From assembly GCA_027460535.1 (NCBI GenBank), contig JAPZAR010000024.1, forward strand, positions 90,001 to 122,000: DNA of 32,000 nucleotides, written 5' to 3'. This DNA is from Candidatus Methanoperedens sp. (lineage in GTDB: Archaea > Halobacteriota > Methanosarcinia > Methanosarcinales > Methanoperedenaceae). Made by a program: the position numbers and the translations under genes. Of the stretch, positions 2,469 through 25,674 are shown in pieces (the first letter of the stretch is position 1; the number at the start of each line of letters is the position of its first letter). The notes below the pieces were generated by a model. The model saw nothing but the letters and a program-made list of their open reading frames with translations. It was not told where the DNA came from and searched no databases.

Positions 2469-2677
2469 AAAGCTGCCTGTTATCTCTGGAAAAGAGACAG
2501 TCAAAGTGCTGGTAAAATTGGTGTTTGAGGTTAGAATGGGAAGGGGTGACCATGTTGTTCTCAAGAAAGGTTTTCGAGTGTTTGTAGTACCTTCATAATC
2601 CTTTAAAGTAAGGGACTTTAAGGAAGATCTTGAAGCAGGCAGGCGTTTCTGTTGAAGAATTCAATACGATGTTATGA
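2461..2677 (+). pseudogene. hicA: hicA toxin pseudogene (one frameshift plus one in-frame TAA)
   Basis: GTG at 2461 overlaps the hicB stop and reads VSEKLPVISGKETVKVLVKLVFEVRMGRGDHVVLKKGFRVFVVPS, then stops at 2596-2598. The +1 frame continues HNPLK-TAA(2609-2611)-GTLRKILKQAGVSVEEFNTML, the conserved HicA C-terminus. Confidence 0.75.
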
Positions 2678-2698
2678 TTTGAGTTATCTCGAGGGTTG

Positions 2699-2780
2699 AA
2701 TCGGCGCCGTTCTTTGAGTGCCCATGGGCGGCGCGCTTTCCTGTTGCGGAGGCTGCGGGATGGGCGCAGGGGGGCGGCGA
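2699..2780 (+). repeat. GC-rich intergenic repeat, copy 4
   Basis: Identical to copy 2 over 69 nt (2699-2767), with a G-rich tail after that. Palindrome GCCCATGGGC at 2720-2729. Confidence 0.9.
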
Positions 2781-2799
2781 AGAACTTGTGGTATTTGAA

Positions 2800-3141
2800 T
2801 TAATCTGGAAGCCCCACTTCGGTTGTTGCATCGGCCAAGAGATGAAATACATAGCCGAGGAAAAAACTCGAAATAATATAAAAGATATTAATAAGTAAAC
2901 CTATCAAAGCTGTTATAATCAATATCTTACCCATTAATTTTAAAGCTCTTTTGCTATGACCTAAACCTCTGTGCATCCAGCTTGCAGGAGCTTCTAAAAT
3001 ATCTGGGATAATAGAACCTAAAACAACAGCTATAAATGCATATACGACTACATCTGTAGAAATTCTAATGATTAAATAAATGAGATAAGTGTACACTATA
3101 AAGGCGATAGCACCTATAGTTAAATGCTGTTGCCTATTCAT
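2800..3141 (-). CDS. Membrane-bound metal-dependent hydrolase, YdjM/DUF457-like
   Basis: 113 aa with 3-4 hydrophobic helices. Motifs PDILE, HRGLGHS and GYVFHLLADATT resemble the DUF457 His/Asp pattern. AT-rich gene. Confidence 0.5.
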   Translation of the reverse strand: MNRQQHLTIGAIAFIVYTYLIYLIIRISTDVVVYAFIAVVLGSIIPDILEAPASWMHRGLGHSKRALKLMGKILIITALIGLLINIFYIISSFFLGYVFHLLADATTEVGLPD

Positions 3142-3515
3142 TTTTGTTTTACAGCTTGTATAGCACGATATAACTCTAAGATGTCTGATCTATTCCCATT
3201 GACCTTGAATTCATTTAAATCAAGGTGCATTTTCTTTAAAATAGTACCTGTTTCAACCATTTTATAAGATTTTATTTGGTCAATTGGTATTTCATTGAGT
3301 ACATCAGATTTGAAAACAATTAAATTACTTTTACGTGTATAAAAAATAACTCGATTGTTCGTTACGTAGCCTTTGAAGCCTGCTATATTGCCAACATATA
3401 GACTACCTTTTGTCATATATACAACGCTTTCATTCGGCATTAGAAATTTTTCTATTCCCAGACCAGACAATCTTGAAGTTTCGCTTAAAGTTTTCTTAAC
3501 AATTTCTTCGACCAT
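3138..3515 (-). CDS. Hypothetical protein, possible bacterial-type PH/GRAM-like domain
   Basis: 125-aa ORF overlapping the downstream DUF457 gene by 4 nt. The pattern ESVVYMTKG...GYVTNNRVIFY...IPIDQI resembles bPH-type domains. This is weak, memory-based recognition. Confidence 0.35.
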   Translation of the reverse strand: MVEEIVKKTLSETSRLSGLGIEKFLMPNESVVYMTKGSLYVGNIAGFKGYVTNNRVIFYTRKSNLIVFKSDVLNEIPIDQIKSYKMVETGTILKKMHLDLNEFKVNGNRSDILELYRAIQAVKQK

Positions 3516-3607
3516 ACTTATCCCTCTGTCTAAATCATTAATTCTATAGTTGATAAATATATCGTAAGTCTTAATTCTCTAATTGTCAATAACAACCCTC
3601 AAACCCT

Positions 3608-3676
3608 ACTCCCCAGAACCACTTCGTCCTCGCATAATTTCCATCTGTGATCAGAATATCCCCTGCAAAACTCCTC
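3608..3676 (-). repeat. Orphan diverged duplicate of the lhr 3' end
   Basis: ACTCCCCAGAACCACTTCGTCCTCGCATAATT...ATCAGAATATCCCCTGCAAAACTCCTC aligns at roughly 80% identity, with 2 single-base indels, to 4376-4442. That segment encodes the last ~22 codons of lhr. Similarity ends abruptly on both sides. Confidence 0.8.
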
Positions 3677-3732
3677 AGAACTTCTGTATCAGAATGACTG
3701 AACTTGAAATCATCGGAAAACCTTCACCTTCC

Positions 3733-4125
3733 TCACTCCCCCAAATACACGACATCCTTCACGCCTTTAAAATGCGGGTCACCTGTCATGAGCATGGCGC
3801 CCTCCCTTTTTGCAGTTGCATAAACGATAGAATCGCCAAGACCCCATTTCATCTTATGTTTCAACCTCGCCGATTCAACGGCGATATTTTCATCCACTTC
3901 AAAGATGTATGACCTCTGCCTCATCGCCTCCCGTGAAGCTTCAGCAAGACGCTCGTTATCAGGATAAGGAAAATCCCGCAGGAATGAATTATATACTTCA
4001 GCAATATTGATGGCGCTTACTATCACTTTTTCTCTGGGATTTTCAATTAATTCCCTTACTTTCTCGCCATGAGTGGTTCCATTAAAATACTCTATCCAGC
4101 CCCAGGAATCAACCAAGACGGTCAT
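3733..4125 (-). CDS. vapC: VapC PIN-domain toxin
   Basis: The preferred start is the internal Met giving MTVLVDSWGWIEYF... (130 aa). PIN acidic residues are present: D6, NIAEV, GDSIVYATA, TGDPHF. The longer 165-aa ORF would overlap the antitoxin extensively. Confidence 0.8.
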   Translation of the reverse strand: MTVLVDSWGWIEYFNGTTHGEKVRELIENPREKVIVSAINIAEVYNSFLRDFPYPDNERLAEASREAMRQRSYIFEVDENIAVESARLKHKMKWGLGDSIVYATAKREGAMLMTGDPHFKGVKDVVYLGE

Positions 4126-4309
4126 CTTCTTCCTCGTGCCTCTTAAATTCCTTAAGTCCCGGAAATGCTCCAAAATACGATTTCTTAAACTTCTTCTTGG
4201 ATTTGATAAGCTCCCGGATAACTTCTTCATAGCTCTTGAGGTTCAGCTCCTTTTTCAAAGCGCTGAGTTCTTTCAGGAGGTCTTCATGCACCTGAATGGT
4301 TGTTACCAT
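4109..4309 (-). CDS. vapB: VapB-like antitoxin
   Basis: 66 aa from the internal Met (MVTTIQVHEDLLKELSALKKEL...). It overlaps the vapC start by 17 nt. The N-terminal extension of the 102-aa ORF would run into the lhr stop region. Confidence 0.55.
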   Translation of the reverse strand: MVTTIQVHEDLLKELSALKKELNLKSYEEVIRELIKSKKKFKKSYFGAFPGLKEFKRHEEEDDRLG

Positions 4310-8314: not shown

Positions 8315-9295
8315 ATGAATTTAGTGAGGCAACGATCAATGTCATCTACATGGCACAGCTTTGGCTTTGAAATGAAAAACAAATACGTATGTATTTTAGC
8401 CGCAGCATTCTTTTTATTGGTTCCTGTTGTTTCTGCTCAGCAGGACGTATCCTGTTACCACTGCCACACGCAGGTGGTCAGTGAATTCAGAAATAATATC
8501 CATTACCAGATGGGTTTCACCTGTGCGAATTGTCATGGAGGGAATGCCCAATCAAATGTTTCTGTTGTATCTGTGGAGGCAATGTCCGGGAATTTCATAG
8601 GCAGGCCCTCGCGCGAGAATATAACGAATGTTTGCTCAAAGTGCCACATCAAGGAAGCCAATGACTACATGCAGAGCATACACTGGGAACAGATCAAAAA
8701 AGGTCATACCGAAGCCGCAACGTGTACCGATTGCCACGGCATACATGAAATTCGTGCGATAAGCGATCCCAATTCCTCTTCAAACCATCAGAACAGCCCG
8801 GCAACATGTGCAAAATGCCATTCCAACAAAGAGATGATGAGCGCATGGTATTATGGAATCAAGACAGACCGGCTGGATACCTATAAGGAATCCTTTCACT
8901 GGAAGGCTTTAAGCAATGGATATAATGTAGTGGCGACATGCGCTGACTGCCACAACAACCATCTCACGAAATCTACAACTGATCCCACTTCAAGCACTTA
9001 TCCTGAAAATCTCCCCAAGACCTGTGGTAAAGCGAACTGCCATCCTGGAGCTATATTAGATGTCAAGATCGCCGCTGGTCTGGTTCATGATAAGGAGTCA
9101 CTGCACACAGGAGAACTCAGTTTCAATAAGACAGGCATGGACCCACAGATGGATTCATATTTCTTGGGGCCATTTGATCTTGCATATTGGATAGCCCTAT
9201 TTTTCAAGATATTGACAACTGGCGTCATAGGCATATTTGCGGGCATGGTGCTTCTGGATTTCTTTTCAAGATTCAAGATTCAAAAGAGATGGTAA
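8315..9295 (+). CDS. Membrane-anchored multihaem c-type cytochrome (6 CxxCH + 1 CxxxxCH)
   Basis: Haem motifs CYHCH, CANCH, CSKCH, CTDCH, CAKCH and CADCH, plus CGKANCH. An N-terminal signal-like helix (ILAAAFFLLVPVVSA-QQ) suggests the true start may be the Met at 8372. There is a C-terminal hydrophobic anchor (WIALFFKILTTGVIGIFAGMVLL). Confidence 0.9.
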   Translation: MNLVRQRSMSSTWHSFGFEMKNKYVCILAAAFFLLVPVVSAQQDVSCYHCHTQVVSEFRNNIHYQMGFTCANCHGGNAQSNVSVVSVEAMSGNFIGRPSRENITNVCSKCHIKEANDYMQSIHWEQIKKGHTEAATCTDCHGIHEIRAISDPNSSSNHQNSPATCAKCHSNKEMMSAWYYGIKTDRLDTYKESFHWKALSNGYNVVATCADCHNNHLTKSTTDPTSSTYPENLPKTCGKANCHPGAILDVKIAAGLVHDKESLHTGELSFNKTGMDPQMDSYFLGPFDLAYWIALFFKILTTGVIGIFAGMVLLDFFSRFKIQKRW

Positions 9296-10296: not shown

Positions 10297-11484
10297 ATGA
10301 AATCAAAAAAATATGGGTCAAATTTAAATTCCGGAGATAACACCATGCATTATATGAAACATAATTATTGGGATGGGAAGCCCATTTCTCCCATACCTCT
10401 TGCCGGAAATATGACCGTTACCGAGCTGGTTGACGATGTATTCGATGCGATGGGATATAATGCAAAAAGACTGGCTGAGGCATGTCATCTGTTCAAGACC
10501 ATGATAGATAATAACTCGACAGTGTGCCTGACGCTGGCCGGTGCGATGAGCCCCGTAGGTATGGGTGGAGGAATCATTAAAATGATCGAGCGCGGTTTCA
10601 TAGATTGGATAGTAACGACAGGCGCCAATACCTATCATGATATGCATTTTGCATATAAGCTACCCGTGCATCAGGGAGATTACACAGCAGATGATAATGA
10701 ACTTGCAGACAACGATGTGGTCAGGATCTATGATGTTTACATCGACATGCAGCGAACGCTTATTGCCCAGGATAAGATTGTCCAGGCACTGACCCAGAAA
10801 GCTATTGAAAAAAATAAATTCCCTAAGAAATTCTCATCCGCACATTATTATAAAACTCTCGGTGAAGGAATACTGGAAACAGCGAATGCTCCTGAGTTAT
10901 CTTTCATCGCATCGGCATCAAAAAATGATATTCCGGTGTTTGTGCCCGCATTTGCTGATTCCTCTGTGGGGATGGGTACGAGCTACCTCCCGATAATAGC
11001 CTGCGCAAAATCAGGCTCGAAGGAACTTGATCCCCTGGATTTCATGGACCCAAGCCCCACGATGGATGTTCTGGAAAGCGCTGCAATCGTGTACCACAGC
11101 ATGATGGAAGATATCCCGCGCGGTGTCCTTGAGGTAGGTGGAGGCGTGCCAAAGAACTTCCTCCAGCAGACAGCCCCCACGATTTCCCAGATTCTGGGTA
11201 TGGAATGTCCGGGTGAGAATTATGTCATCCAGGTAACCGTGGACCGACCTGATGTCGGCGGTCTCTCAGGAGCCACGATAAATGAAGGCAAATCATGGGG
11301 CAAGATCCCGAAGGCCGGGGAAGGGAATGTAATACCTTACATTGACGCAACTGTTGGTGTGCCAATAATTTTCGCTTATGCCCTTGAGAACTGCAAACCC
11401 AGGAAGCCTAAGAGAATAAGCAGGAAACTGCCTGAAATCAGGCAGGAACTTGTTGAAGCTGCGATGGAGAACGTGAAAAAGTAA
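10297..11484 (+). CDS. dys: Deoxyhypusine synthase
   Basis: Motifs LTLAGAMSPVGMGG, TTGANTYHD and NEGKSWGKI (catalytic Lys region). The true start may be a downstream Met (10345 or 10354). Confidence 0.85.
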   Translation: MKSKKYGSNLNSGDNTMHYMKHNYWDGKPISPIPLAGNMTVTELVDDVFDAMGYNAKRLAEACHLFKTMIDNNSTVCLTLAGAMSPVGMGGGIIKMIERGFIDWIVTTGANTYHDMHFAYKLPVHQGDYTADDNELADNDVVRIYDVYIDMQRTLIAQDKIVQALTQKAIEKNKFPKKFSSAHYYKTLGEGILETANAPELSFIASASKNDIPVFVPAFADSSVGMGTSYLPIIACAKSGSKELDPLDFMDPSPTMDVLESAAIVYHSMMEDIPRGVLEVGGGVPKNFLQQTAPTISQILGMECPGENYVIQVTVDRPDVGGLSGATINEGKSWGKIPKAGEGNVIPYIDATVGVPIIFAYALENCKPRKPKRISRKLPEIRQELVEAAMENVKK

Positions 11485-13902: not shown

Positions 13903-14883
13903 TTACTGGTGAAGGTTAAAAAAGTATTCTGACAGGTTATCATAATGCGGTGGTTCTTTATGGACTTCCTTGATGTACCTGAACTCAAATATTTCCTGTT
14001 CAGGTAATCTTCTTGAAATATATTTTAAGCTATGAAGCACGGGCACGAAAGCCATAGTTGAGGCGACAAACTCGCACGACAATGCAGCGCAGTATTTGGG
14101 CGAGACACAGTAAGCATCAAGAACAAAATCCGCATCAACGATACCTGTGAGTTTCGATACTATCCCTGCCGCCTTCATGGGATCTTTCCGGATAAAATTA
14201 CTCGCCTTTTCATGCAGCTTCAGGAATCCCAATATCAAATCTGGATCCTGCATCAATTCCCTTCTGATTACTATCCCATAGCTTGGGTTATTGGGCCAGA
14301 GAACGTACGGTGCAATGATTATCTTAGCCCCGCACGCACGCGCTGCTGCCACAGCAAGTGATGGCGTCCCGACAGCGGCATCTATCTCCCTATCCGCCAG
14401 CGCCTCCAGCACAAAGTCCGTCCAAGCGAAATTCTTCACCCCAATGTCAAGTTTCGCTTCCTCCAGAGCATTTCGGATAATGACGTCGTGAATTGAGCCT
14501 CTGGGGGGGGAGCCGATGATTTTTCCCTTAAACTGCGAGAGTGCAGAATTGAAATCCTTCAGGTCATCAAAAATCCTGTATTCCTTTTGGGCTATCAACA
14601 CCGTGCCTTCGACATGTCCCCCTGCCACGCATGTTATCGGCACGCCTCGGTCAATGCCTATGATTGCGGGAGGGAGACCGATGTATCCTATATCTATTTC
14701 TTTGTTCTCAAAAGCCTTCACGATATCAGGACCTGAGGCAAAGAGTTTCCAGTTCGCCCGGATGCCAGCTTTATCGAGCCAGTCCGTGCCCATCAGGATA
14801 AAAGAGGTGTGATAGACGGTTGAGAGATGGCCGATGTTGATGGGCTTTAAGTTATCGTGATTGCCATTATCATTTTTCTTCAT
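13903..14883 (-). CDS. NMT1/THI5- or SsuA-like solute-binding-fold protein (no obvious signal peptide)
   Basis: 326 aa. The pattern INIGHL...FASGPDIVKAFENKEIDIGYIGLPPAI...VAGGHVEG resembles COG0715-type binding proteins. Memory-based assignment. Confidence 0.45.
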   Translation of the reverse strand: MKKNDNGNHDNLKPINIGHLSTVYHTSFILMGTDWLDKAGIRANWKLFASGPDIVKAFENKEIDIGYIGLPPAIIGIDRGVPITCVAGGHVEGTVLIAQKEYRIFDDLKDFNSALSQFKGKIIGSPPRGSIHDVIIRNALEEAKLDIGVKNFAWTDFVLEALADREIDAAVGTPSLAVAAARACGAKIIIAPYVLWPNNPSYGIVIRRELMQDPDLILGFLKLHEKASNFIRKDPMKAAGIVSKLTGIVDADFVLDAYCVSPKYCAALSCEFVASTMAFVPVLHSLKYISRRLPEQEIFEFRYIKEVHKEPPHYDNLSEYFFNLHQ

Positions 14884-15430
14884 ACTTCTTGTACATCTTC
14901 TTCAAATCCAGAAGGCCCTCATAAACCCCAATTTTTTTGCTTATCCTCTCAAGATACTCCATTTTAAGAGAATTATACTGTCTTATGTAAATACCAAGAG
15001 CATCCTTGATATCCTGTTCCCTTGAAAAAAGTAACTTGTTTGCAATTGTATCCTCTGGAGAGGCTATGTAAATCACAGTATCATCGAGCCTTACTTTCTT
15101 TTTATTTCTGAGCACTCTTTCATCCAACTCGCTGTAAACTCCCTTAATGTCCAGTCTGAGCATTGTTTCTTTATCTTCAATTGTGCTGTGAGATTTTTCC
15201 AGAAGCGCAGCTCGCATATCATTTTCAGATGCGTAGAACCCATTTTCTTGCAGGAACTTCATTAGGACAGGTATATCTTTATCTGAAAACTGAATAACAT
15301 AATCAATATCCATTGTAGTCCTAGGATTGCCATAGAACAGGACTGCTATCCCTCCTACGATGACGTATTCTATGCTATTCTCGTCCAGGAAATTACACAC
15401 CAGATTTAAAATGTCTTCAATTTTCCTCAT
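14870..15430 (-). CDS. Minimal nucleotidyltransferase-fold protein
   Basis: 186 aa. YVIVGGIAVLFYGNPRTTMDIDYVI is the GG...(R)xT.DxD signature of pol-beta-type NTases (AbiEii/DUF6036-like). Confidence 0.5.
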   Translation of the reverse strand: MRKIEDILNLVCNFLDENSIEYVIVGGIAVLFYGNPRTTMDIDYVIQFSDKDIPVLMKFLQENGFYASENDMRAALLEKSHSTIEDKETMLRLDIKGVYSELDERVLRNKKKVRLDDTVIYIASPEDTIANKLLFSREQDIKDALGIYIRQYNSLKMEYLERISKKIGVYEGLLDLKKMYKKYEEK

Positions 15431-15587
15431 GCTGGGCCTTCTTTACTCGCAAGGCGAAATCGATCAGGTCCATCCCCTGACGAAGGGTTGCAAGACCAGA
15501 GAATTTCCTTGCCCTGAATGCATCGCGTACCAGTTCTTTTTCTGTGGTTTCCCTGACTTTTTTCCTGAGTTCTTCTAAATCCATCAT
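15417..15587 (-). CDS. Small helical ORF upstream of the NTase (possible partner/antitoxin)
   Basis: A 56-aa ORF not in the supplied track because it is under 60 aa: MMDLEELRKKVRETTEKELVRDAFRARKFSGLATLRQGMDLIDFALRVKKAQHEEN. Its end overlaps the NTase start by 14 nt. Confidence 0.3.
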   Translation of the reverse strand: MMDLEELRKKVRETTEKELVRDAFRARKFSGLATLRQGMDLIDFALRVKKAQHEEN

Positions 15588-17124: not shown

Positions 17125-18042
17125 TTATGCTACTACCCTTGTACCTGTTTTGCCCGCGAGAGCAGGCAGCGCCTTATCCAGGCTTGAGATAATGGCAGTC
17201 TTCCCTCCGGATCTGACGAACCAGAGCGCTGCAAGTACCTTTGGTTCCATGCTGCCTTTTCCGAAATGTCCTTCCTCAATATATTTTTCAGCCTCTGAAA
17301 CAGATATTTTATCAAGGTCTATCTGATCCTCTTTTCCAAAATTCAGGGCCGCTTTCTCAACATCGGTTAGTATGAGAAGGATCTCTGCCCCAACCGCGGT
17401 CGCTATCAGGCTGCCCGTAAGATCTTTGTCAATGACCGCTTCGACGCCAGAAAGCAAATTGTTTTTTCTAATGACAGGGATCCCGCCTCCTCCTCCGGCT
17501 ATAACTACGACACCTTCCTCAACCAGTTTTTTTATAATTTCTTCCTCAACTATCTGTCTGGGCAGTGGTGAAGCCACGACCCGCCTGTAACCTTTTTTAT
17601 CCTTTATCATTTTCATGCCTTTCTCCATCATCTTCCTTGCTCTGAATTCGGGATAATAAAGGCCGATCGGCTTGGTGGGAACCGAGCAACATGACTCATC
17701 CACAATCACCTGCGTGAGGATCGTCACGACCTTTTTCTCTATTCCCTCCTCTTTCAGCCGGTTATCAAGGGATTGCTGAAGCAAATATCCAAGCATCCCC
17801 TGCGTCTGGGCCCCGCAAAGATCAAGGGGTTGCGGATGAACAAGACCGCACTCTTCCTGCATCGCAAGGATATTCCCTATCTGAGGGCCATTGCCATGGG
17901 TCACAACCACATCAAAATCATTTTGGATGATCTGCGCGATCTCCCTGCAGGCTTCATCGATCATTCGCTGCTGCTCAACCGGACTTCCCTTTTCGGGATT
18001 CAATATCGCGTTACCACCAATTGCAATCACTATTCTGGTCAT
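17125..18042 (-). CDS. arcC: Carbamate kinase
   Basis: MTRIVIAIGGNA and VTHGNGPQIGN are carbamate kinase signatures. The start is placed at the internal Met. The 13-codon extension to 18081 runs into the promoter-like direct repeat. Confidence 0.85.
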   Translation of the reverse strand: MTRIVIAIGGNAILNPEKGSPVEQQRMIDEACREIAQIIQNDFDVVVTHGNGPQIGNILAMQEECGLVHPQPLDLCGAQTQGMLGYLLQQSLDNRLKEEGIEKKVVTILTQVIVDESCCSVPTKPIGLYYPEFRARKMMEKGMKMIKDKKGYRRVVASPLPRQIVEEEIIKKLVEEGVVVIAGGGGGIPVIRKNNLLSGVEAVIDKDLTGSLIATAVGAEILLILTDVEKAALNFGKEDQIDLDKISVSEAEKYIEEGHFGKGSMEPKVLAALWFVRSGGKTAIISSLDKALPALAGKTGTRVVA

Positions 18043-18075
18043 TTTCCCCTGAATGTTCAATGACTTACATGGCTT

Positions 18076-18093
18076 TAACATATTATAATTTCG
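18076..18093 (+). repeat. Left copy of perfect 18-bp direct repeat TAACATATTATAATTTCG
   Basis: Identical 18-mer at 20551-20568. The two copies sit exactly at the edges of the AT-rich two-gene block. Confidence 0.9.
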
Positions 18094-18158
18094 GGTACTG
18101 TTAAGTTAATGAGTATGTAAAATACTATCTAAAGTTCTCAAAAATATAAAAATTTTTT

Positions 18159-19274
18159 TTAATTTACTTCAAAACCAAAATCACCTAATTCTCTATCTTT
18201 TTGCCTCTCTGTTTTATACTTTGATTGAATTTCTTCAATAGCAGTCTCCTTCATACCATCAAGTTCTTCTTCCAATTGATTTTTTATCCATTTTTCTTCA
18301 AATATCTGTGCCAGTTTATCTGCTCTATAGCTTTTAGCTTTTATGCGATATTGATTGGGTTCTATAGTTGTTTTTTCTAAGAAATCAATTCTTAAACCCA
18401 AACTTAAAATTGATTTTGCTTCATTTTTTATCACTCCATCATCCAGATAGAAAAGCTCTTTTGATAAATTTTCTATCAATTCATCTTCGCTCACAGTGAG
18501 TCCGGTTTCCTCAATTCTTGCAGCGAATATAAGAGAATCAAGTTTAGAAACTGGATGACTTTGTGGGAAAAAATTAAACATCTTTCTATTTGATAAAACA
18601 CGATTCTTCATTCTTTTATTGAGTTCATGGTCTCGGTGTATCATACTATTTTTTATAGTGGGTGGAATTATTTTTGGTGGGAAGGCTATAGAAATACCTT
18701 CTAATCCTGTAATAGGAGCATGCCAAACAACAATTCCGCCACCTTTATCAATTGTTTTTCTTAAAATGTTTGGCGCATCTATAGAAGGTACTGCGATTAC
18801 ATATTCGAAATATACCATTTCATTTATAGGTATCTTGAGATATTTGGTTTTTATGTAATCCGTGTATTGAGTTATTGTAATAATTCTATCCTTATACTCA
18901 TTTATTATCTTATCAGGATTTTTTGAAATACTTCCTTTTGCTTCTCCGAAAATTGCAATTCTTACTCTTTCTGTCGATTTATAAAGAAGAAAATCTACGT
19001 TTGGAATACTAAGTTCAGCCAAAGGGCTGGCTCGAATAAACCGATAATCAATACTTCTTAATGTTCCCTTCTCAGTAAACGGAGCAACACAAACATTTAT
19101 CATCACTCTATGTTTTCGGTCAATTTCTATGGCATTTTTTTTAGCTTTCTCGAGAAAATCTCTTTTAGAGTTGAAATTTTGTTCCACTTGGTATAATAGG
19201 TGTTTCTTTTCTTCTCTATATGCTTCTATTAGACTTGGAGAGTGTAGGAACTTGATAAATTCCTCGTCGTCCAA
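18159..19274 (-). CDS. Hypothetical protein with PD-(D/E)xK nuclease-like motif
   Basis: 371 aa with a TTG start preceded by GGAGA 10 nt upstream. IPNVD(94)FLLYKSTERVRIAIFGE(111)AK(113)GS fits the D...ExK core of restriction-endonuclease-fold nucleases. The C-terminal ~150 aa are helical and charged. Confidence 0.55.
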   Translation of the reverse strand: MDDEEFIKFLHSPSLIEAYREEKKHLLYQVEQNFNSKRDFLEKAKKNAIEIDRKHRVMINVCVAPFTEKGTLRSIDYRFIRASPLAELSIPNVDFLLYKSTERVRIAIFGEAKGSISKNPDKIINEYKDRIITITQYTDYIKTKYLKIPINEMVYFEYVIAVPSIDAPNILRKTIDKGGGIVVWHAPITGLEGISIAFPPKIIPPTIKNSMIHRDHELNKRMKNRVLSNRKMFNFFPQSHPVSKLDSLIFAARIEETGLTVSEDELIENLSKELFYLDDGVIKNEAKSILSLGLRIDFLEKTTIEPNQYRIKAKSYRADKLAQIFEEKWIKNQLEEELDGMKETAIEEIQSKYKTERQKDRELGDFGFEVN

Positions 19275-19286
19275 AAATTATCTCTC

Positions 19287-20360
19287 CTATTGTCTTTCAT
19301 CGATTGTAGAGAGTTCTGCTTGTTCATCAATAGATTCTGCTATTCCTCGATAGAAACCCAAAAGTGACTCAAAAGTCATTCGATATTTAGGTACAATAAG
19401 GATTTCAGACTCGCTTGCGCTAATATCAAACACTGAACCTTTAATTTCATCAATTACTGTGGAAGTAAAACTCAATGACCCGATTTCAATATTTTTATCA
19501 ATAAATGAAAAATCTTTAAGCTCCTTTGCTAAACTCTCTACAGTATAAGCGTCAATTTCTCGTTTATGGAGTTTAATTACTCCGACATCGACTGATGCAG
19601 ATTTTAGATTTGATTCTCCAGAAGCGATGTTAAAGTTCAACGATTTAGAGATGTTTCTCATTTTTAAAATTGGGTCTTTTATTTCATCTAAGTAATTGAA
19701 GAATAATGAAAGCGCGGGGGATGATGGTTCTTGTGCTGAGAATAGACCCTCATTTGTAAGATGAAGTTTCAAATTTTCATTCACTTGGATATAAATGGAA
19801 GTGGGTAAAACCCCATATAATTCTTCAATTTCCAACATTGTTTGCGTACCGTCATCACCTGTATAGTTGAATCGTCTTTCATAATTAGGCCTAATTCTGC
19901 TTGGTGTATCATCCAATAACTTTCTCTTACTAGTGAATCTATACACAAAACTTCCATTATTCTGTTCAATTGTTTCTTTCCAAAAACGTCTAAAAAAGTC
20001 TGGTTTTATCCACATAGGAGTGGTGCCTCTTGACTTTTTTATTTTATTTTCTACAGATTTTTTATATCTCTCGTTATTTGCTGTTGTGAATAATAATAAT
20101 AAACCCGGACTATATTCCAAAGCATAGTATATTTCTTCAATTTCATCAGAAGATTCTACCTCTGGTGTAACTTTAAAAATTGCGCCTAATTGCGTAATCT
20201 CATCTATTTTAAACAAGGTGGTTTGCCATGAATTATCCGAAACAAGAATGCAATAAATTTTAAGCCAATTCTTTCTTTCCTCTTCAAATATTTCATCGGA
20301 GTGTTCCATGAGATAATCTAAAAACTCACCCACTGAATATTCTTTTTCAGGAATTTTCAT
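19287..20360 (-). CDS. Hypothetical protein, no recognisable domain
   Basis: 357-aa ORF, first gene of the cassette operon, ending 12 nt before the next gene. An AT-rich TATA-like stretch lies 25-40 nt upstream (20375-20395). No Walker, nuclease or HTH motif was found by eye. Confidence 0.6.
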   Translation of the reverse strand: MKIPEKEYSVGEFLDYLMEHSDEIFEEERKNWLKIYCILVSDNSWQTTLFKIDEITQLGAIFKVTPEVESSDEIEEIYYALEYSPGLLLLFTTANNERYKKSVENKIKKSRGTTPMWIKPDFFRRFWKETIEQNNGSFVYRFTSKRKLLDDTPSRIRPNYERRFNYTGDDGTQTMLEIEELYGVLPTSIYIQVNENLKLHLTNEGLFSAQEPSSPALSLFFNYLDEIKDPILKMRNISKSLNFNIASGESNLKSASVDVGVIKLHKREIDAYTVESLAKELKDFSFIDKNIEIGSLSFTSTVIDEIKGSVFDISASESEILIVPKYRMTFESLLGFYRGIAESIDEQAELSTIDERQ

Positions 20361-20550
20361 TTTATTATCATTACTTCTTTTTTGTATATATAATATACTG
20401 CATAAACTTTATTTAACTCAGTGTTGGTTTTTAATGTTTTGTTCATCTTTGGGGTATACCAAATTGAGGAAGCCAAATACCTAACAAAATTAGATGGTTT
20501 GGAGGTTTAATGTTTTAAATCCGAGGTTATTTTACCCCTACTCCTTAATC

Positions 20551-20568
20551 TAACATATTATAATTTCG
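20551..20568 (+). repeat. Right copy of perfect 18-bp direct repeat TAACATATTATAATTTCG
   Basis: Identical to 18076-18093. Confidence 0.9.
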
Positions 20569-20612: not shown

Positions 20613-21788
20613 ATGAAGACATGCATAATGTGCGGCGGCGAGGGAACAAGACTTCGGCCTCTTACTTTTGACAGACCAAAACCAATGATCCCGCTTTTGA
20701 ACAAGCCATCGGTCGTGCATCTGGTGGAACACCTTGCCAAGGAAGGTTTCAACGACATTGTGCTCACCCTGGGTTATCTCGGCGGGGAAATAGAAAATGC
20801 GCTGGGCGACGGGAGTATGTACGGTGTTCATATCGAATATGTACATGAAATAGAAAAACTGGGAACCGCAGGCGGTGTAAAGAATGCAGAGGAACTCTTC
20901 GAGGGCGAGCCTTTCATGGTGGTCGGGGGAGACCATGTCATGAACCTTGGATTGCGGGAGTTCGTGCGCTTCCATGAGGAGAACGATGCCATCGTGACGA
21001 TCGGTTTAATCCCCATAGACGACCCGCGCGAATACGGCATCGCGGATATGGATGTCAATAACAGGATCAACCGGTTCTTTGAAAAACCCGGGCCAGGTGA
21101 AATTTTCAGCAACCTTGCAAGCACAGGCATATACGTCTGCGATCCCGAGATCCTTGATCTGATACCCGGGAAGAAATACGATTTTGCAAAAGACCTTTTC
21201 CCTGATATCATGAAAAAAGGCGAGATAATCAACGGTTTCCTTGTGCATGGGAGGTGGACTGATATCGGGAACCCGCAGGCTTACAGGGAAGCATGCAGGT
21301 GGATGCTTGAGCAGATGCCCGGGACAAAGATATCCGGGCGATTTAATATCAAGGACGCAAAAGTGACTGGGCCGATAGACATCGCCCATGATGTTTCGCT
21401 GGGCTCGAATTCCTCCATTGTCGGGCCGATAGTGATAGGAGAGAACACCTCCATAGGGGATAATGTATTGATAGGCCCTTATACGTCCATCGGGTCAAAC
21501 TGTAAAATCGGCAATAACTCAAGGATACTTTCATCGTATATCTATGATAATGTGGAAATCGGCGAAAACACAGCTGTTTCCAGTGCGACCATCGATAATG
21601 CCACCAAGATAAAGGATTCCTGTATACTTGAAACCGGTACTGTCATCGGTCCGCGGGTAATAATCGGGAATGATGTCACGGTTAACTCGCAGGTGAGGAT
21701 ATGGCCGGAAGTAAGAGTAAAGAATGGAACCAGGGTCACGGAGAACCTTGGAAATGAGGACTTCGGGAACGAGATAAAAGGCTCCTAA
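20613..21788 (+). CDS. Sugar-1-phosphate nucleotidyltransferase with C-terminal left-handed beta-helix
   Basis: The N-terminus CGGEGTRLRPLTFDRPKPMIPL is the GxGTRxxPxT/K signature. The C-terminal third consists of hexapeptide repeats (IGENTSIGDNVLIGPYTSIGSNCKIG...). Confidence 0.85.
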   Translation: MKTCIMCGGEGTRLRPLTFDRPKPMIPLLNKPSVVHLVEHLAKEGFNDIVLTLGYLGGEIENALGDGSMYGVHIEYVHEIEKLGTAGGVKNAEELFEGEPFMVVGGDHVMNLGLREFVRFHEENDAIVTIGLIPIDDPREYGIADMDVNNRINRFFEKPGPGEIFSNLASTGIYVCDPEILDLIPGKKYDFAKDLFPDIMKKGEIINGFLVHGRWTDIGNPQAYREACRWMLEQMPGTKISGRFNIKDAKVTGPIDIAHDVSLGSNSSIVGPIVIGENTSIGDNVLIGPYTSIGSNCKIGNNSRILSSYIYDNVEIGENTAVSSATIDNATKIKDSCILETGTVIGPRVIIGNDVTVNSQVRIWPEVRVKNGTRVTENLGNEDFGNEIKGS

Positions 21789-22468: not shown

Positions 22469-22650
22469 CAGACCATTCTTTGCCTTTTAATTTATAAATT
22501 TTTAAAACTTAGCTTTATTTATGTTTGGATTTCCGTAGTGAGAATCCTTTAGACATAGCATAATTGATTGGTTTATTTTTATCTTTAGTTGTAAGCGTCT
22601 CTATATAATGGCTTTTGATGGCTTAAAGTTTAAAAAAGGATAGATTTTCA

Positions 22651-22929
22651 TTACTTCATTGAAAGATGAATAGACGAGGAAATTTCGAATATACTTTCCC
22701 TTGCAAAATGAATTATTAATGCTGCTTCAGAGATGTATAGTAAAATTTTAACTGTAAAGGGCAAATTCGGAAACAATAGCTCAGTAAATTTAATCGTAAA
22801 CCAAATGATTAAAATTGTTAGAAAAAAGAGGAAGGTATGCTTAACTAAATTAATTGTATAAGGATATGTTTTAACCCAAATATCATGGTGAATAGATGGT
22901 ACTTCAGGTTTTTTTATTTTATTAGCCAT
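22651..22929 (-). CDS. Small membrane protein (2 predicted TM helices)
   Basis: 92-aa ORF with hydrophobic stretches FLFFLTILIIWFTI and ILLYISEAALIIHF. It lies 24 nt downstream of the RHH-fusion gene on the same strand. Very AT-rich. Confidence 0.45.
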   Translation of the reverse strand: MANKIKKPEVPSIHHDIWVKTYPYTINLVKHTFLFFLTILIIWFTIKFTELLFPNLPFTVKILLYISEAALIIHFARESIFEISSSIHLSMK

Positions 22930-22953
22930 TAATTCACCATTAATTTATTAAGA

Positions 22954-23466
22954 TTATTTTGATAATCCAGATAATTCTAAAATATTTTTTAAAATCTGTA
23001 ATTTATCAAGAACTTCTTTATTTTTATTAGCCGTTTCGTACAATTCATTTATTAGATTAGTTATTATTTTATCAGGCTCATCAAAAATATGAATTGGTAG
23101 ATTTTTATCATTAAGATGCCAAGTTTGTTCTGGGGATTCATCAGATTCACTAGACCACATACGAACCTCATCTTGATACAGAATATATGTATAATTAACA
23201 CCGTTAAATGGATTGGAAGATGAGCCTATTTGCAAAGACGTTTCCCATTTTTTTAGAATTTCTGATATTTTTTTAAGTACATCAGTATAAACGTCTCGTA
23301 ATTTATCAGAAGTCACAATTTTATCATTATCATGACCAAGCGAATATAATTTTAATGAGTTCTCAGTCACTTCAGAAAGATTAAGACCTAACTTTTTCGC
23401 TTTTTCAATTACTTCTGAATTAATTGAAAGTGTTAATTTCTTTTTTTCGGATTCCATACGTATCAT
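22954..23466 (-). CDS. Protein with N-terminal ribbon-helix-helix (CcdA/VapB-like) domain fused to an unknown C-terminal domain
   Basis: The N-terminus KKLTLSINSEVIEKAKKLGLNLSEVTENSL is a typical RHH antitoxin-type DNA-binding module. The remaining ~130 aa are unassigned. Confidence 0.5.
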   Translation of the reverse strand: MIRMESEKKKLTLSINSEVIEKAKKLGLNLSEVTENSLKLYSLGHDNDKIVTSDKLRDVYTDVLKKISEILKKWETSLQIGSSSNPFNGVNYTYILYQDEVRMWSSESDESPEQTWHLNDKNLPIHIFDEPDKIITNLINELYETANKNKEVLDKLQILKNILELSGLSK

Positions 23467-23481
23467 TATTTCATTATTTGC

Positions 23482-23539
23482 ACGTATGTTTAAATAGTTT
23501 TCTGTACATACGTATGTTTTTATTATTATTAGTACGTAT
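23482..23539. promoter_or_regulatory. Three ACGTAT-core repeats plus TATA-like box upstream of the RHH-fusion gene
   Basis: ACGTATGTTT at 23482-23491 and 23510-23519, and GTACGTAT at 23532-23539 (palindromic TACGTA core). TTTAAATA at 23489-23496 lies about 25-30 nt from the ATG at 23466. Confidence 0.3.
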
Positions 23540-23823
23540 AAATTAATATTTCAGAAATGGCTAAAATGCATAAGTTTGTTTGAAACCGAAAATATAATAT
23601 CAACTTCAGTATATTGTTATCCTAAATAACTACCAACAAGAATAGAAACGGTCAAAACAAACGTCCATTTGTTTGTACTTTTTTCTTTAAAGGGACAGAA
23701 ACAAGCTTTTTGATATACCCCTTTTTATCGCTGAAAATTTCTTATTTCTCTTTTTTTCTTTAATTTAAGATAATTGACCGTTGATATCGGGAGATTGCTT
23801 TTTATGAGAATATTAATCATGTA

Positions 23824-24294
23824 TTAATATCCGTATTCATGCGAACGAGAGATAAAATTATCCCACTCTTTTCTCTTCGGAAAATTTGAATTCAAAGGAG
23901 GAAGTTCGCCATGAGTTTTAAAATATTTCACAATAGCTTCTCCCTCAAATTGTTCTATTTCTTTTGTTTTATAATATGAATATTCCAAGTCCTTTGATTC
24001 AATTTTTATATTCACTTTTCTTAACAGATAAATCATATTACTCGCGGGGTGACCACCCATGTTTTTTAAAGCCCCTCCGGCTTCGAACCCCTTTAGAAAC
24101 CTTTTACGTCCTTTTTCCATATCGCCATTTTTACCAATATAAAGTACACCTTCCGAATCTTCCTTTAACCATCGAGGTATTACGACTGGTTTTTTATCTT
24201 TAAGAAGTCTTATTCTATATACTGCTGGATTCGATTCCGCGGAATCTTCAATGTTTCTCCATTCTGTCCAATAAAGAATAGGGGTAATATCCAT
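23824..24294 (-). CDS. GIY-YIG-like nuclease domain protein
   Basis: 156 aa with AVYRI ... VLYIGKNGDMEKGRKRF ... EGEAIVKYFKTHGELPPLN. These match the GIY / YIG / Arg / Glu-x(n)-P.LN elements of GIY-YIG nucleases, although the GIY-to-YIG spacing is longer than usual. Confidence 0.5.
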   Translation of the reverse strand: MDITPILYWTEWRNIEDSAESNPAVYRIRLLKDKKPVVIPRWLKEDSEGVLYIGKNGDMEKGRKRFLKGFEAGGALKNMGGHPASNMIYLLRKVNIKIESKDLEYSYYKTKEIEQFEGEAIVKYFKTHGELPPLNSNFPKRKEWDNFISRSHEYGY

Positions 24295-24465
24295 ATTATC
24301 ACTCAGCTTTCATTACAAAATTAAACATGATAAAATTATCGAAATTATCCCCCGACTTTTGACATGTCATTCTATCCCCGAAGACTCGACGGAACCTCTC
24401 AGTAGAAACATATATATATATTAAATTTCAGAATCATGTGTTAATAGATAGAAAATTTAAATAAA

Positions 24466-25146
24466 TTGGGTGGTATATTAAGAATGAAATTGGGTGGTAT
24501 ATTAAAAATAGTTCCTGAAGATGATAGAAATTTCACTCAAATCGATAATCTTGCTACGTTGAAACAAAAAGTCAAAGAAAGTAAAAGAAATATCATAATA
24601 ATCCCTTTCGCTTCCGTAATTATTCTTATTGTAACAGCAATAGTAATAGCGAAATTCTTTTCGGCACCCGTTCCCCCTCCACCTAGTTTAACAGGGATAA
24701 CCATATTTGCGGTAATCTACTTTATCGCACAGTTATCCGAAAGAGTCACCGAACTATTCAGCGACGTTTCAGTAAAGGGAAGTTCTCCAAGATTAGGTGA
24801 ATACACGAGACATATAAGTTACATTGATATGGTTATTAAAAATACCATTGATAAAAACACGAGAACTCTATTAGAGTTAGACCATCCGTCAATACATGAT
24901 ATGAGACAACTTATTTACTATAATGAGTTACAAAGTTACTATGACAAGAGAAATAGGGAGATTATACTTTGGGCTGTCCCCTCATTATTCGCAGTTATAT
25001 TCACATCACTGACATTAGGGTTGTTTGGGATTATTGGAATAACTTACATACCACACGTATGGGATTCGTTATTCAGCGGGATGATCATTGGAGGCGGAAC
25101 AAAGCCATTACACGATTTAATATCTTACATACAAAGTAAACCATAA
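24466..25146 (+). CDS. Membrane protein, unknown function
   Basis: 226-aa ORF (TTG at 24466; the ATG at 24484 is more likely) with about 4 hydrophobic helices. A 24-bp tandem duplication sits at the start region. Confidence 0.45.
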   Translation: MGGILRMKLGGILKIVPEDDRNFTQIDNLATLKQKVKESKRNIIIIPFASVIILIVTAIVIAKFFSAPVPPPPSLTGITIFAVIYFIAQLSERVTELFSDVSVKGSSPRLGEYTRHISYIDMVIKNTIDKNTRTLLELDHPSIHDMRQLIYYNELQSYYDKRNREIILWAVPSLFAVIFTSLTLGLFGIIGITYIPHVWDSLFSGMIIGGGTKPLHDLISYIQSKP

Positions 25147-25212
25147 AACCACATTCAGTGGCAACTGGCAATATTTATAGTCGCAGATAATCTACATTAA
25201 TGAGGTCGTAAG

Positions 25213-25255
25213 CTCTCTTTTTTTTTGCGGATGAAAAAAACGATAAAAAAAGAGA
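25213..25255. terminator. A/T-run hairpin, possible bidirectional terminator
   Basis: TCTCTTTTTTT (25214-25224) pairs with AAAAAAAGAGA (25245-25255). The 9-T run on the + strand lies 70 nt after the 24466-25146 gene, and there is a T-run on the - strand too. Archaeal terminators are oligo-T tracts. Confidence 0.35.
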
Positions 25256-25274
25256 ACCTGGTTTACCACACCAA

Positions 25275-25349
25275 GTCGAATAAGAAAGAGTGATTGCTCA
25301 CTCTCTCTCTTCCAAGAACCGTACTTGCGACTTTCACCGCATACGGCTC
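25275..25349 (-). mobile_element. Group II intron 3' end fragment (domain V and domain VI)
   Basis: Minus strand 25349-25316 reads GAGCCGTATGCGGTGAAAGTCGCAAGTACGGTTC. This is a 34-nt domain V with the AGC triad, 2-nt bulge and GAAA tetraloop. It is followed by a domain VI hairpin (GAAGAGAGAGAGTGA-GCAA-TCACTCTTTCTT-A-TTC) with a bulged A 7 nt before a ...GAC 3' end at 25275. Confidence 0.85.
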
Positions 25350-25491
25350 AAGCGTTCGATAACCCTTTAAATAGGCCAGCAGTTATTTGTCATATATATG
25401 AATCATTTGATTCATGGTCAGTTTCCCATACGTTAAAAAAGTCACAAGATTTATAACTGTTTCATGACATTGCATAATTGCAGGTGAAAAA

Positions 25492-25674
25492 ATGCCTTAC
25501 ATATATAAAGTTAAAAATATCGGAGGAACAAAACCAGGGAAAGCGATAGAAAAAAAGTTGAATGACCTTGGAAGCGAGGATTGGGAGTTAATAGCTTTCC
25601 AATGCAATAATGATAAGACTTTAACAGGAATATTCAAAAAGGTCAAATTGTCATCAGAGAATTCTGGCGCATAA
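25492..25674 (+). CDS. Small DUF4177-like protein
   Basis: 60 aa. YIYKVKN...IEKKLNDLGSEDWELIAF...GIFKK resembles the DUF4177 pattern. Memory-based assignment. Confidence 0.4.
   Translation: MPYIYKVKNIGGTKPGKAIEKKLNDLGSEDWELIAFQCNNDKTLTGIFKKVKLSSENSGA

Follow-up and report, generated by a model that had tools for sequence, protein, structure and literature searches.

We analyzed a 32,000-nucleotide (nt) stretch of a Candidatus Methanoperedens genome (contig JAPZAR010000024.1 of GenBank assembly GCA_027460535.1, positions 90,001 to 122,000 of the forward strand), here called the window, in which a 2,457-bp AT-rich, transposon-like element carries two adjacent minus-strand genes, gene 1 and gene 2, and nothing else. 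An earlier note on this DNA, made from its letters without database searches, had described linked genes of 357 and 371 amino acids (aa) with a 12-nt gap and proposed a candidate defense or addiction module; coordinates and lengths are confirmed exactly, and the operon structure is borne out. We show that the two genes form a strictly paired, rare, and widely scattered module that combines a predicted nuclease with a partner of nucleic-acid-binding fold and that may serve in immunity. In the following layout, the coordinates of the two open reading frames (ORFs) are exact, and the TATA-like element, the spacer, and the tail were read from the sequence.

20385..20397, minus strand: TATA-box-like element TATATTATATATA, centered ~31 nt upstream of the gene 1 ATG
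20360..19287, minus strand: gene 1, ATG start, 357 aa
19287-19283, minus strand: Shine-Dalgarno-like box GGAGA, overlapping the last base of the gene 1 TAG stop codon
19275..19286, minus strand: intercistronic spacer, 12 nt
19274..18159, minus strand: gene 2, TTG start, 371 aa
18116..18158, minus strand: 3' untranslated tail after the gene 2 stop codon, with T-rich tracts TAAaaaaaatttttatatttttgag

The Shine-Dalgarno-like box that the earlier note had placed 10 nt before gene 2 is present, but its 3' end lies 8 nt from the TTG, so that the former distance was only approximate. The TTG start itself is real, because gene 2 homologues begin at the same aligned position (MDDEEF/MDEEEF) and independent gene callers return the same 371-aa product. 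By general archaeal promoter architecture, the TATA-box-like element may be a promoter within the cassette itself, and its distance from the gene 1 ATG would leave a very short leader. The T-rich tail is plausibly an archaeal oligo-T terminator, and with both signals the cassette would seem to be transcriptionally self-contained. Scans for bacterial-type promoters and terminators and against Rfam returned nothing informative. The gene 1 protein is 100% identical to a protein from a Candidatus Methanoperedens metagenome-assembled genome (P0030, NCBI), and eight public contigs carry the same arrangement.

The AlphaFold2 model of the gene 2 product (predicted local distance difference test, pLDDT, 92.7; predicted template modeling score, pTM, 0.86) displays the alpha-beta-beta-beta-alpha-beta core that defines the PD-(D/E)xK fold, within the following layout (residue numbers).

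13-66: N-terminal helix
~77-200: nuclease core (strands 77-82, 95-100, and 105-112; helix 120-136; strand 155-163)
E87, D94, E111, and K113: core residues, from model and alignment
~240-311: winged-helix-like domain
318-366: C-terminal helix

D94 stands before strand 95-100, and E111 and K113 lie at the end of strand 105-112, which is the canonical PD-(D/E)xK hairpin. The motif IPNVD94...E111-A-K113, which had first suggested a nuclease of this type, is present, and all 27 close homologues share E87, N92, D94, E111, and K113. Across a deeper set of 45 members, reaching down to 23% identity and taking in haloarchaea and Nitrososphaerota at 23 to 34%, D94 and K113 never vary, position 111 holds glutamate (aspartate once), and H55, F66, Y77, P84, W184, and H213 are likewise invariant. 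Conservation of the motif and the fold thus bear out the assignment, and we classify the gene 2 product as a predicted nuclease of the restriction-endonuclease (PD-(D/E)xK) fold, with a confidently predicted core. The "long helical C-terminal domain" of the earlier note did not survive: the model shows an alpha/beta, winged-helix-like domain followed by one long helix, and the second long helix of the protein is the N-terminal one. Foldseek searches of the PDB matched the core to PaqCI, XisH (two entries), AF2093, FokI, MspJI, Cap4, and Nt.BspD6I, as well as to viral cap-snatching endonucleases and the R2 restriction-like endonuclease, and the winged-helix domain to Roquin ROQ, Cdt1, cullin WH-B, FoxP3, PadR, and TrmBL2. 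At the sequence level, Pfam and NCBIfam scans gave nothing better than an E value of 0.57, and the family profile found only chance-level matches among all PDB sequences. The family comprises 46 clusters at 90% identity, all unannotated, 355 to 380 aa long, without a precomputed Pfam domain, and without fusions.

Gene 1 belongs to the uncharacterized Pfam family PF27341 (AF_0896_M), named after an uncharacterized Archaeoglobus protein, according to precomputed matches on P0030 and most homologues; the Pfam copy scanned here was without the PF27341 model, and Pfam, NCBIfam, and PADLOC scans of gene 1 gave nothing above noise. The AlphaFold2 model (pLDDT, 87.2; pTM, 0.86) contains three alpha/beta domains of beta-alpha-beta(n)-alpha arrangement, the topology of the TATA-binding protein (TBP), and on this model the gene 1 product consists of tandem TBP-like domains. 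Its Foldseek matches agree with this view: in the PDB they are Escherichia coli RnlA (domains NTD and NRD), RdgC, and CENP-L/Iml3, and in a viral set they are phage RdgC-like proteins, giant-virus TATA-binding proteins, and an RNase LS-like protein, with probabilities of up to 0.99 to 1.0 for the RdgC, RnlA, and TBP matches. The TBP-like fold commonly binds nucleic-acid duplexes. No nucleoside triphosphatase (NTPase), nuclease, helix-turn-helix, or membrane signature is seen in the protein, in line with the earlier note, which had found neither Walker nor helix-turn-helix, nuclease, or transmembrane signatures in it. The same note had called the pair unassignable, which does not fully hold for gene 1, given PF27341 and the recognizable fold. 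The best-conserved stretch is R157-x4-RRFNYTGDD170-x6-E177-x4-YG183 (in more general form, R157-x4-RR-x2-Y-x-G-x-D170...E177...YG183), and F142, D170, D304, P324, F336, and D345 are invariant family-wide. A profile search of 1.84 billion representative proteins returned 218 clusters, which, fragments aside, are 350 to 390 aa long with one matched stretch and no fusions; against all PDB sequences, the gene 1 profile again gave chance-level matches only.

Gene 1 followed by gene 2, adjacent and on the same strand, is found in every locus with an intact gene 2 (about 22), with intergenic gaps of ~1 to 15 nt or overlaps of 8 to 17 nt, so that the strict co-occurrence on which the proposal of a two-gene module depends is borne out. 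Nine genome loci represent Thermoplasmata/Methanomassiliicoccales (three), Nitrososphaerota (four, labeled Nitrosocosmicus, Thaumarchaeota, Nitrososphaerota, and Nitrosopumilus), an unclassified archaeon, and an "uncultured bacterium." The pair is also present on metagenome contigs, including Methanoperedens and bacterial-labeled or presumed-bacterial ones, and on six haloarchaeal plasmids or megaplasmids, among them pHLAC01 of Halorubrum lacusprofundi (HLAC_RS16615/16610). In 21 of 22 loci the GC content of the pair is lower than that of its flanks, by up to 19 points. The only orphan (L105) is an N-terminally truncated gene 2 with no gene 1. Gene 2 of the Halapricum desulfuricans plasmid pHSR-Est01 (L110, 13102-14217) carries a W184 TGG-to-TAG stop beside an intact gene 1, and that of L011 is split, on a contig with 1.4x coverage. 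Halomicrobium and Haloarcula were considered as further cases of gene 2 decay and rejected, their gene 2 being intact but divergent, which weakens the case for a preferential loss of gene 2 beside a persisting gene 1. A viral origin was likewise rejected: gene 2 has no relatives in IMG/VR, and gene 1 has none in 50,697 phage records.

Tight coupling of an upstream gene to a downstream nuclease is also what an addiction module of the toxin-antitoxin kind would show, in which gene 2 encodes a toxic nuclease and gene 1 its antitoxin, and the pair stabilizes the plasmid or island that carries it without sensing any invader. Several observations fit: an intact gene 2 was never seen without gene 1; gene 2 has been lost beside an intact gene 1 in L110 and possibly in L011; the pair is often found on plasmids and megaplasmids of haloarchaea; toxin-antitoxin genes (SocA_Panacea, Doc, and PIN) are frequent neighbors; and gene 1 is similar in fold to the N-terminal domains of RnlA, the toxin of the RnlAB system. 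However, with 357 aa and three domains, the gene 1 product is unlike the typical small, fast-evolving antitoxin; it is better conserved than the nuclease (mean column identity of 50% compared to 41%) and lacks a DNA-binding domain for autoregulation, many copies sit singly on chromosomes, and the asymmetry in gene decay rests on one or two cases. We consider an addiction module unlikely on this balance, although toxin-antitoxin and defense roles are not mutually exclusive.

Restriction or other defense genes lie within 10 kb of the pair in 8 to 10 of 21 loci (~40 to 45%, a raw count), so that residence in defense islands is frequent but not universal. The clearest neighborhoods are the following.

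L001: SF1 helicase and PLD nuclease
L003: NYN, HTH-M78 peptidase, GmrSD, and BrxC/D-like ATPase
L006: McrB-like MrcB_N-EVE-AAA protein and DUF2357/PDDEXK_7; PIN protein
L010: type I hsdRSM; terminase gene upstream
L019: Schlafen/AlbA_2, RmuC, and two transposases (insertion sequence elements)
L020: three SIR2_2 proteins and SocA_Panacea
L108: restriction endonuclease and DUF499-DUF1156-helicase
L110: McrBC-like AAA ATPase and restriction endonuclease, DUF1156, TrlF, and DUF262; AddAB-like and SbcCD-like genes

L107 and L114 are borderline defense contexts. Mobile-element genes occur near the pair in L008, L010, L012, L019, L106, L107, and L114, and phage-like neighbors occur in L008 and L010. 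A pooled PADLOC scan of 102 neighboring ORFs returned mostly redundant type I restriction-modification models and added little. Exonuclease VII genes (xseA/xseB) adjoin the pair in L007 (4298-5872) and L104 (7344-8755), on opposite sides, an adjacency that could be a coincidence, an insertion hotspot, or a functional link.

Such neighbors also bear on a reading of the pair as an accessory DNA repair or recombination module, in which an RdgC-like modulator and a structure-specific nuclease would act on host or plasmid DNA. The RdgC-like fold of gene 1, the contact with xseA/xseB in two lineages, and the AddAB-like and SbcCD-like genes beside the pair in L110 all favor it, but AddAB, SbcCD, and exonuclease VII genes are also common near defense loci. 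Further, the pair is patchily distributed and rare (218 clusters in 1.84 billion proteins), its composition is foreign in 21 of 22 loci, and closely related Methanoperedens are without it at the same site. Rarity, foreign composition, and absence in relatives argue for accessory, selfish, or defense genes and against repair pathways, and we regard this reading as distinctly improbable. Both the addiction and the repair readings overlap mechanistically with defense.

How the pair came to lie where it does in the window can be read from the ends of the element, which, together with the flanking genes, are located as follows.

17125-18081, minus strand: carbamate kinase
18076..18093: direct repeat copy 1, TAACATATTATAATTTCG, on the carbamate kinase side, an 18/18 match to 20551-20568
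18094..18115: intact terminal inverted repeat GGTACTGTTAAGTTAATGAGTA, immediately after direct repeat copy 1; it matches both ends of the L111 cassette
20539..20550: shortened or degenerate counterpart of this inverted repeat (GATTAAGGAGTA as the reverse complement), immediately before direct repeat copy 2
20551..20568: direct repeat copy 2, TAACATATTATAATTTCG, on the nucleotidyltransferase side
20613-21788, plus strand: nucleoside diphosphate (NDP)-sugar nucleotidyltransferase

The GC content drops to 0.31 to 0.34 over 18000-20500, compared to 0.46 to 0.48 on either side (32% for the insertion and ~45% for the chromosome). For the 18-bp direct repeat, chance would provide 0.10 matches even with three mismatches allowed. 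Copy 1 overlaps the annotated ATG of a 318-aa carbamate kinase call, and the element lies in the promoter region shared by the divergent genes for carbamate kinase and the nucleotidyltransferase. The cassette of L111, 80% nucleotide identical to that of the window, occupies another genomic site. Its terminal inverted repeats of 22 nt (GATACTGTTAAGTTAAGGAGTA / ...GGAATA; z = 17 against shuffles) abut a short palindromic repeat, TTTCATGAA(A), of about 9 to 10 bp, and the two repeat-bearing ends lie at 272-302 and 2684-2714. The terminal sequence of the cassette is GRTACTGTTAAGTTAAKGAGTA, and an alignment of the four ends shows 10 nt missing, relative to L111, from the inverted repeat at 20539-20550. 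The inverted repeats become convincing only through this comparison of the window with L111; the window by itself gives an inverted-repeat score that 44 of 500 shuffles also reach, which is not significant, and across loci the shuffle test is significant in 2 to 3 of 20. In the window and L111 alike, the flanking direct repeats coincide in part with the start codon or promoter of the host gene downstream, which in L111 is unrelated to the flank of the window and which we read as nucleosidase-like.

Since the same terminal sequence abuts repeats in both the window and L111, we conclude that the cassette is a transposon-like element, with inverted repeats abutting direct repeats at two different insertion sites as in transposable elements. 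The claim of a mobile AT-rich insertion is thus borne out by the GC drop, the 18-bp direct repeats, and the inverted repeats shared with L111, and the pair is indeed its only cargo. Newly found here is that the element ends in 22-nt inverted repeats directly next to perfect 18-bp direct repeats and yet encodes no recombinase: genes 1 and 2 match no transposase or integrase family or fold. When the cassette ends were sought in 1.02 Mb of fetched loci, they appeared only at cassette ends, with no transposase-bearing element among them, and no such element was found in viral contigs either. The element is presumably mobilized in trans. A distant copy of the pair, L104 (35% GC in surroundings of 54 to 60%), lies between xseB and trpB on a 3-Mb contig and is bracketed by ~17-nt repeats (8806-8822 and 11171-11187; z = 5.1) with the palindromic core TTTGCATGCAAA, at equivalent distances from the genes; the flanking repeats of the window, L111, and L104 all hold short palindromes (ATTATAAT, TTTCATGAAA, and TTTGCATGCAAA).

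In a multi-site test of P0039, all 16 metagenome contigs (including L116 to L125) had the same left junction, which gives no sign of active transposition in that population; there are two different right flanks, and most of the contigs break just past the pair. In related Methanoperedens contigs (L028 to L030), the nucleotidyltransferase and carbamate kinase genes (89% and 77% amino acid identity, respectively) are adjacent and divergent, with the pair absent between them. Because their intergenic region, with 287 nt and a small ORF, differs in sequence, the empty site is supported at the level of gene order only, and an exact empty site was not found, as every contig with an identical nucleotidyltransferase carries the insertion. 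The spacer of the window is reconstructed at only ~95 nt compared to 287 nt, indicating that the intergenic region is itself variable. The small ORF of the related contigs lies in the 287-nt spacer at the position taken by the cassette in the window; it spans ~60 aa and by eye possibly encodes a membrane protein.

An element of this kind could in principle be a self-mobile cassette, both proteins being the mobility machinery of a new type of insertion element, for example, with a dimeric restriction-like nuclease making staggered cuts at short AT-rich palindromes and a DNA-binding partner at the element ends. The shared 22-nt inverted repeats and direct repeats that bound two-gene cassettes in the window and L111, the ~17-nt repeats at equivalent distances in L104, and the short palindromes in all three sets of flanking repeats would fit such a scheme, as would the failure to find a transposase with the cassette ends in the fetched loci and viral contigs and the combination of a PD-(D/E)xK core with a winged helix, which recalls TnsA of Tn7. 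On the other hand, a hydrolytic nuclease cannot perform strand transfer, and gene 1 gave no match to a DDE, HUH, or serine or tyrosine recombinase fold. Moreover, the pair is single copy in every record, one left junction is shared by all 16 P0039 contigs, inverted repeats are significant in just 2 to 3 of 20 loci, the direct repeats are of unequal length (18 compared to about 9 bp), and the ends are not conserved in a family that spans phyla at 25% identity. We find a self-mobile cassette very improbable. The chance appears remote that it is, more specifically, a selfish nuclease element whose genes 1 and 2 recognize the 22-nt ends and AT-rich palindromic targets, drive their own insertion with 9- to 18-bp duplications, and maybe also act in immunity or addiction; if true, this would be a transposition or homing mechanism without a DDE, HUH, or serine or tyrosine recombinase.

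The genomic context suggests a function of the pair in defense or addiction, and we favor, with a probability of about 0.5, the reading that it moves horizontally as a self-contained unit and provides immunity to viruses or plasmids by targeting nucleic acids. An accessory immune module fits best because six properties come together: the operon is strictly paired and translationally coupled; the nuclease has a restriction fold and keeps its catalytic residues; the partner is conserved and nonenzymatic, with a nucleic-acid-binding fold; the pair is rare, with a wide and patchy distribution; its composition is foreign; and it frequently resides in defense islands and on plasmids. In such a module, the two proteins would form a stoichiometric complex, in which the gene 1 product may act as a nucleic-acid-binding sensor or regulator that restrains or directs the nuclease. 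The gene 2 product could dimerize through its long helices, be positioned on DNA by its winged helix, and cleave invading DNA or, in an abortive response, the DNA of its own cell. Neither protein falls into a characterized family, the D/E/K residues are conserved, and the two genes co-occur, three points on which the earlier note had made its proposal of a defense or addiction module depend.

Several points weigh against an immune function. The complex and the sensor or regulator role of gene 1 are steps that we infer. The Foldseek matches of both proteins are weak (best E values against the PDB of 5e-3 for gene 2 and 3e-3 for gene 1; TM scores of 0.2 to 0.3 over the full length), so that the domain analogies hold at the fold level only, although the list for gene 2 is consistent. 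PADLOC-DB v2.0.0 returned no family for either protein at an E value of ≤1. More than half of the 21 contexts are without recognizable defense neighbors, and those of the window, L007, L011, L013, L104, L109, and L112 contain only housekeeping genes. Finally, a plasmid of Haloarcula sp. JP-L23 (L115, 8906-10054) encodes a full-length, very divergent gene 2 product (hhalign probability, 96.7%) that keeps the D94 equivalent and is the only exception to the conservation of the triad; as E111 and K113 are lost, it may be a catalytically dead variant.

Compared with known systems, the pair resembles nuclease-effector defense systems and type IV or type IIS restriction enzymes but is a member of none. 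The PADLOC result is in keeping with the claim of the earlier note that the pair matches no named defense system, and searches of the open-access literature on PF27341, AF_0896, RdgC-like anti-phage systems, and archaeal two-gene PD-(D/E)xK defense systems turned up no account of the pair. Type IIS and type IV enzymes (PaqCI, FokI, and MspJI; Mrr-like) share with gene 2 the PD-(D/E)xK core and a winged-helix-type DNA-binding domain, and type IV enzymes, like the cassette, have no cognate methyltransferase. Yet, although enzymes of these types are the top Foldseek matches of gene 2, the TM score is ~0.2 and there is no sequence-level homology; the domain order of gene 2 is reversed (nuclease and then winged helix), long helices are added at both termini, and these enzymes have no counterpart of the obligate 357-aa partner. 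Hachiman (HamA/HamB) also combines a PD-(D/E)xK effector with a noncatalytic or sensing partner, resides in defense islands, and spreads horizontally, and the single-gene Shedu is related in effector type. The pair differs from both in matching no PADLOC model, in having a partner that is neither helicase nor ATPase, and in lacking an NTPase motif in either protein.

For gene 1, the multidomain TBP-like architecture of RdgC and phage RdgC-like proteins aligns over 260 to 350 columns with probabilities of up to 0.99 to 1.0, but at 6 to 10% identity and a TM score of ~0.3 this is a resemblance of fold only. Gene 1 has no match to Pfam RdgC, placing it outside that family, and RdgC, unlike gene 1, is not paired with a nuclease. 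Likewise, gene 1 matches the two N-terminal TBP-like domains (NTD and NRD) of RnlA in the RnlA/LsoA family with probabilities of 0.9 to 0.99, and RnlAB is, like this pair, a two-gene module, one tied to phage defense. Whereas the effector of RnlA is a C-terminal HEPN RNase on the same chain, the candidate effector here is a separate protein of DNA-nuclease fold; neither Pfam nor Foldseek matches gene 1 to a HEPN domain, and there is no RnlB-like partner, which sets the pair apart from RnlAB/LsoAB. The cyanobacterial XisH/XisI pair is also a conserved two-gene cassette tied to mobile DNA, and XisH, a small PD-(D/E)xK fold, is among the best matches to the gene 2 core (probability, 0.89 to 0.90). 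However, XisH has ~130 aa and neither winged helix nor long helices, and gene 1 showed no similarity to XisI. TnsA of Tn7 consists of a PD-(D/E)xK domain and a C-terminal winged helix, the same two-domain logic as gene 2, within an element that has inverted repeats and target duplications. In contrast to Tn7, there is no TnsB-like DDE partner here and the duplications are 9 to 18 bp rather than 5 bp, and TnsA is not among the Foldseek matches of gene 2.

Elsewhere in the window, a second AT-rich island (22500-25500; GC, 0.27 to 0.34) contains small unannotated genes; repeats like the ones that flank the first cassette were not seen around it. It encodes a 170-aa protein with a CcdA-like N terminus (22954-23466, minus strand; Pfam E value, 1.7e-6), followed by a 92-aa ORF that is hydrophobic by eye (22651-22929, minus strand), as well as 156-aa and 226-aa ORFs without a family match. 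A 186-aa DUF6036/AbiEii-like nucleotidyltransferase (14870-15430, minus strand) overlaps an upstream 56-aa ORF (15417-15587, minus strand), and this two-ORF unit (14870-15587) resembles a toxin-antitoxin pair of the nucleotidyltransferase type. Further toxin- or defense-related genes may be those for a PIN-domain protein (3733-4230, minus strand; Pfam E value, 8e-17) and for a 160-aa protein (433-915) that shows weak hints of PIN-TPR-GreABC and nSTAND, both noted together with another low-GC stretch at ~2500-4000.

Archaeal immunity is far less charted than bacterial immunity, most cataloged systems having been defined in bacteria. The present work describes a compact two-gene module, matched by no named system, that spans methane-oxidizing Methanoperedens, ammonia-oxidizing Nitrososphaerota, and haloarchaea. 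To our knowledge, the TBP-like-repeat fold has not previously been linked to a separate DNA-nuclease effector. If the pair serves in defense, it would represent a new sensor-effector combination and a candidate sequence- or structure-specific nuclease. It is also experimentally tractable, because pHLAC01 carries an orthologous pair and a pHLAC01-free strain exists: H. lacusprofundi ACAM34_UNSW is free of this plasmid, sensitive to virus, and genetically modifiable (PMC10544981). Finally, the inverted-repeat-bounded cassette shows how such modules may move between archaeal genomes.

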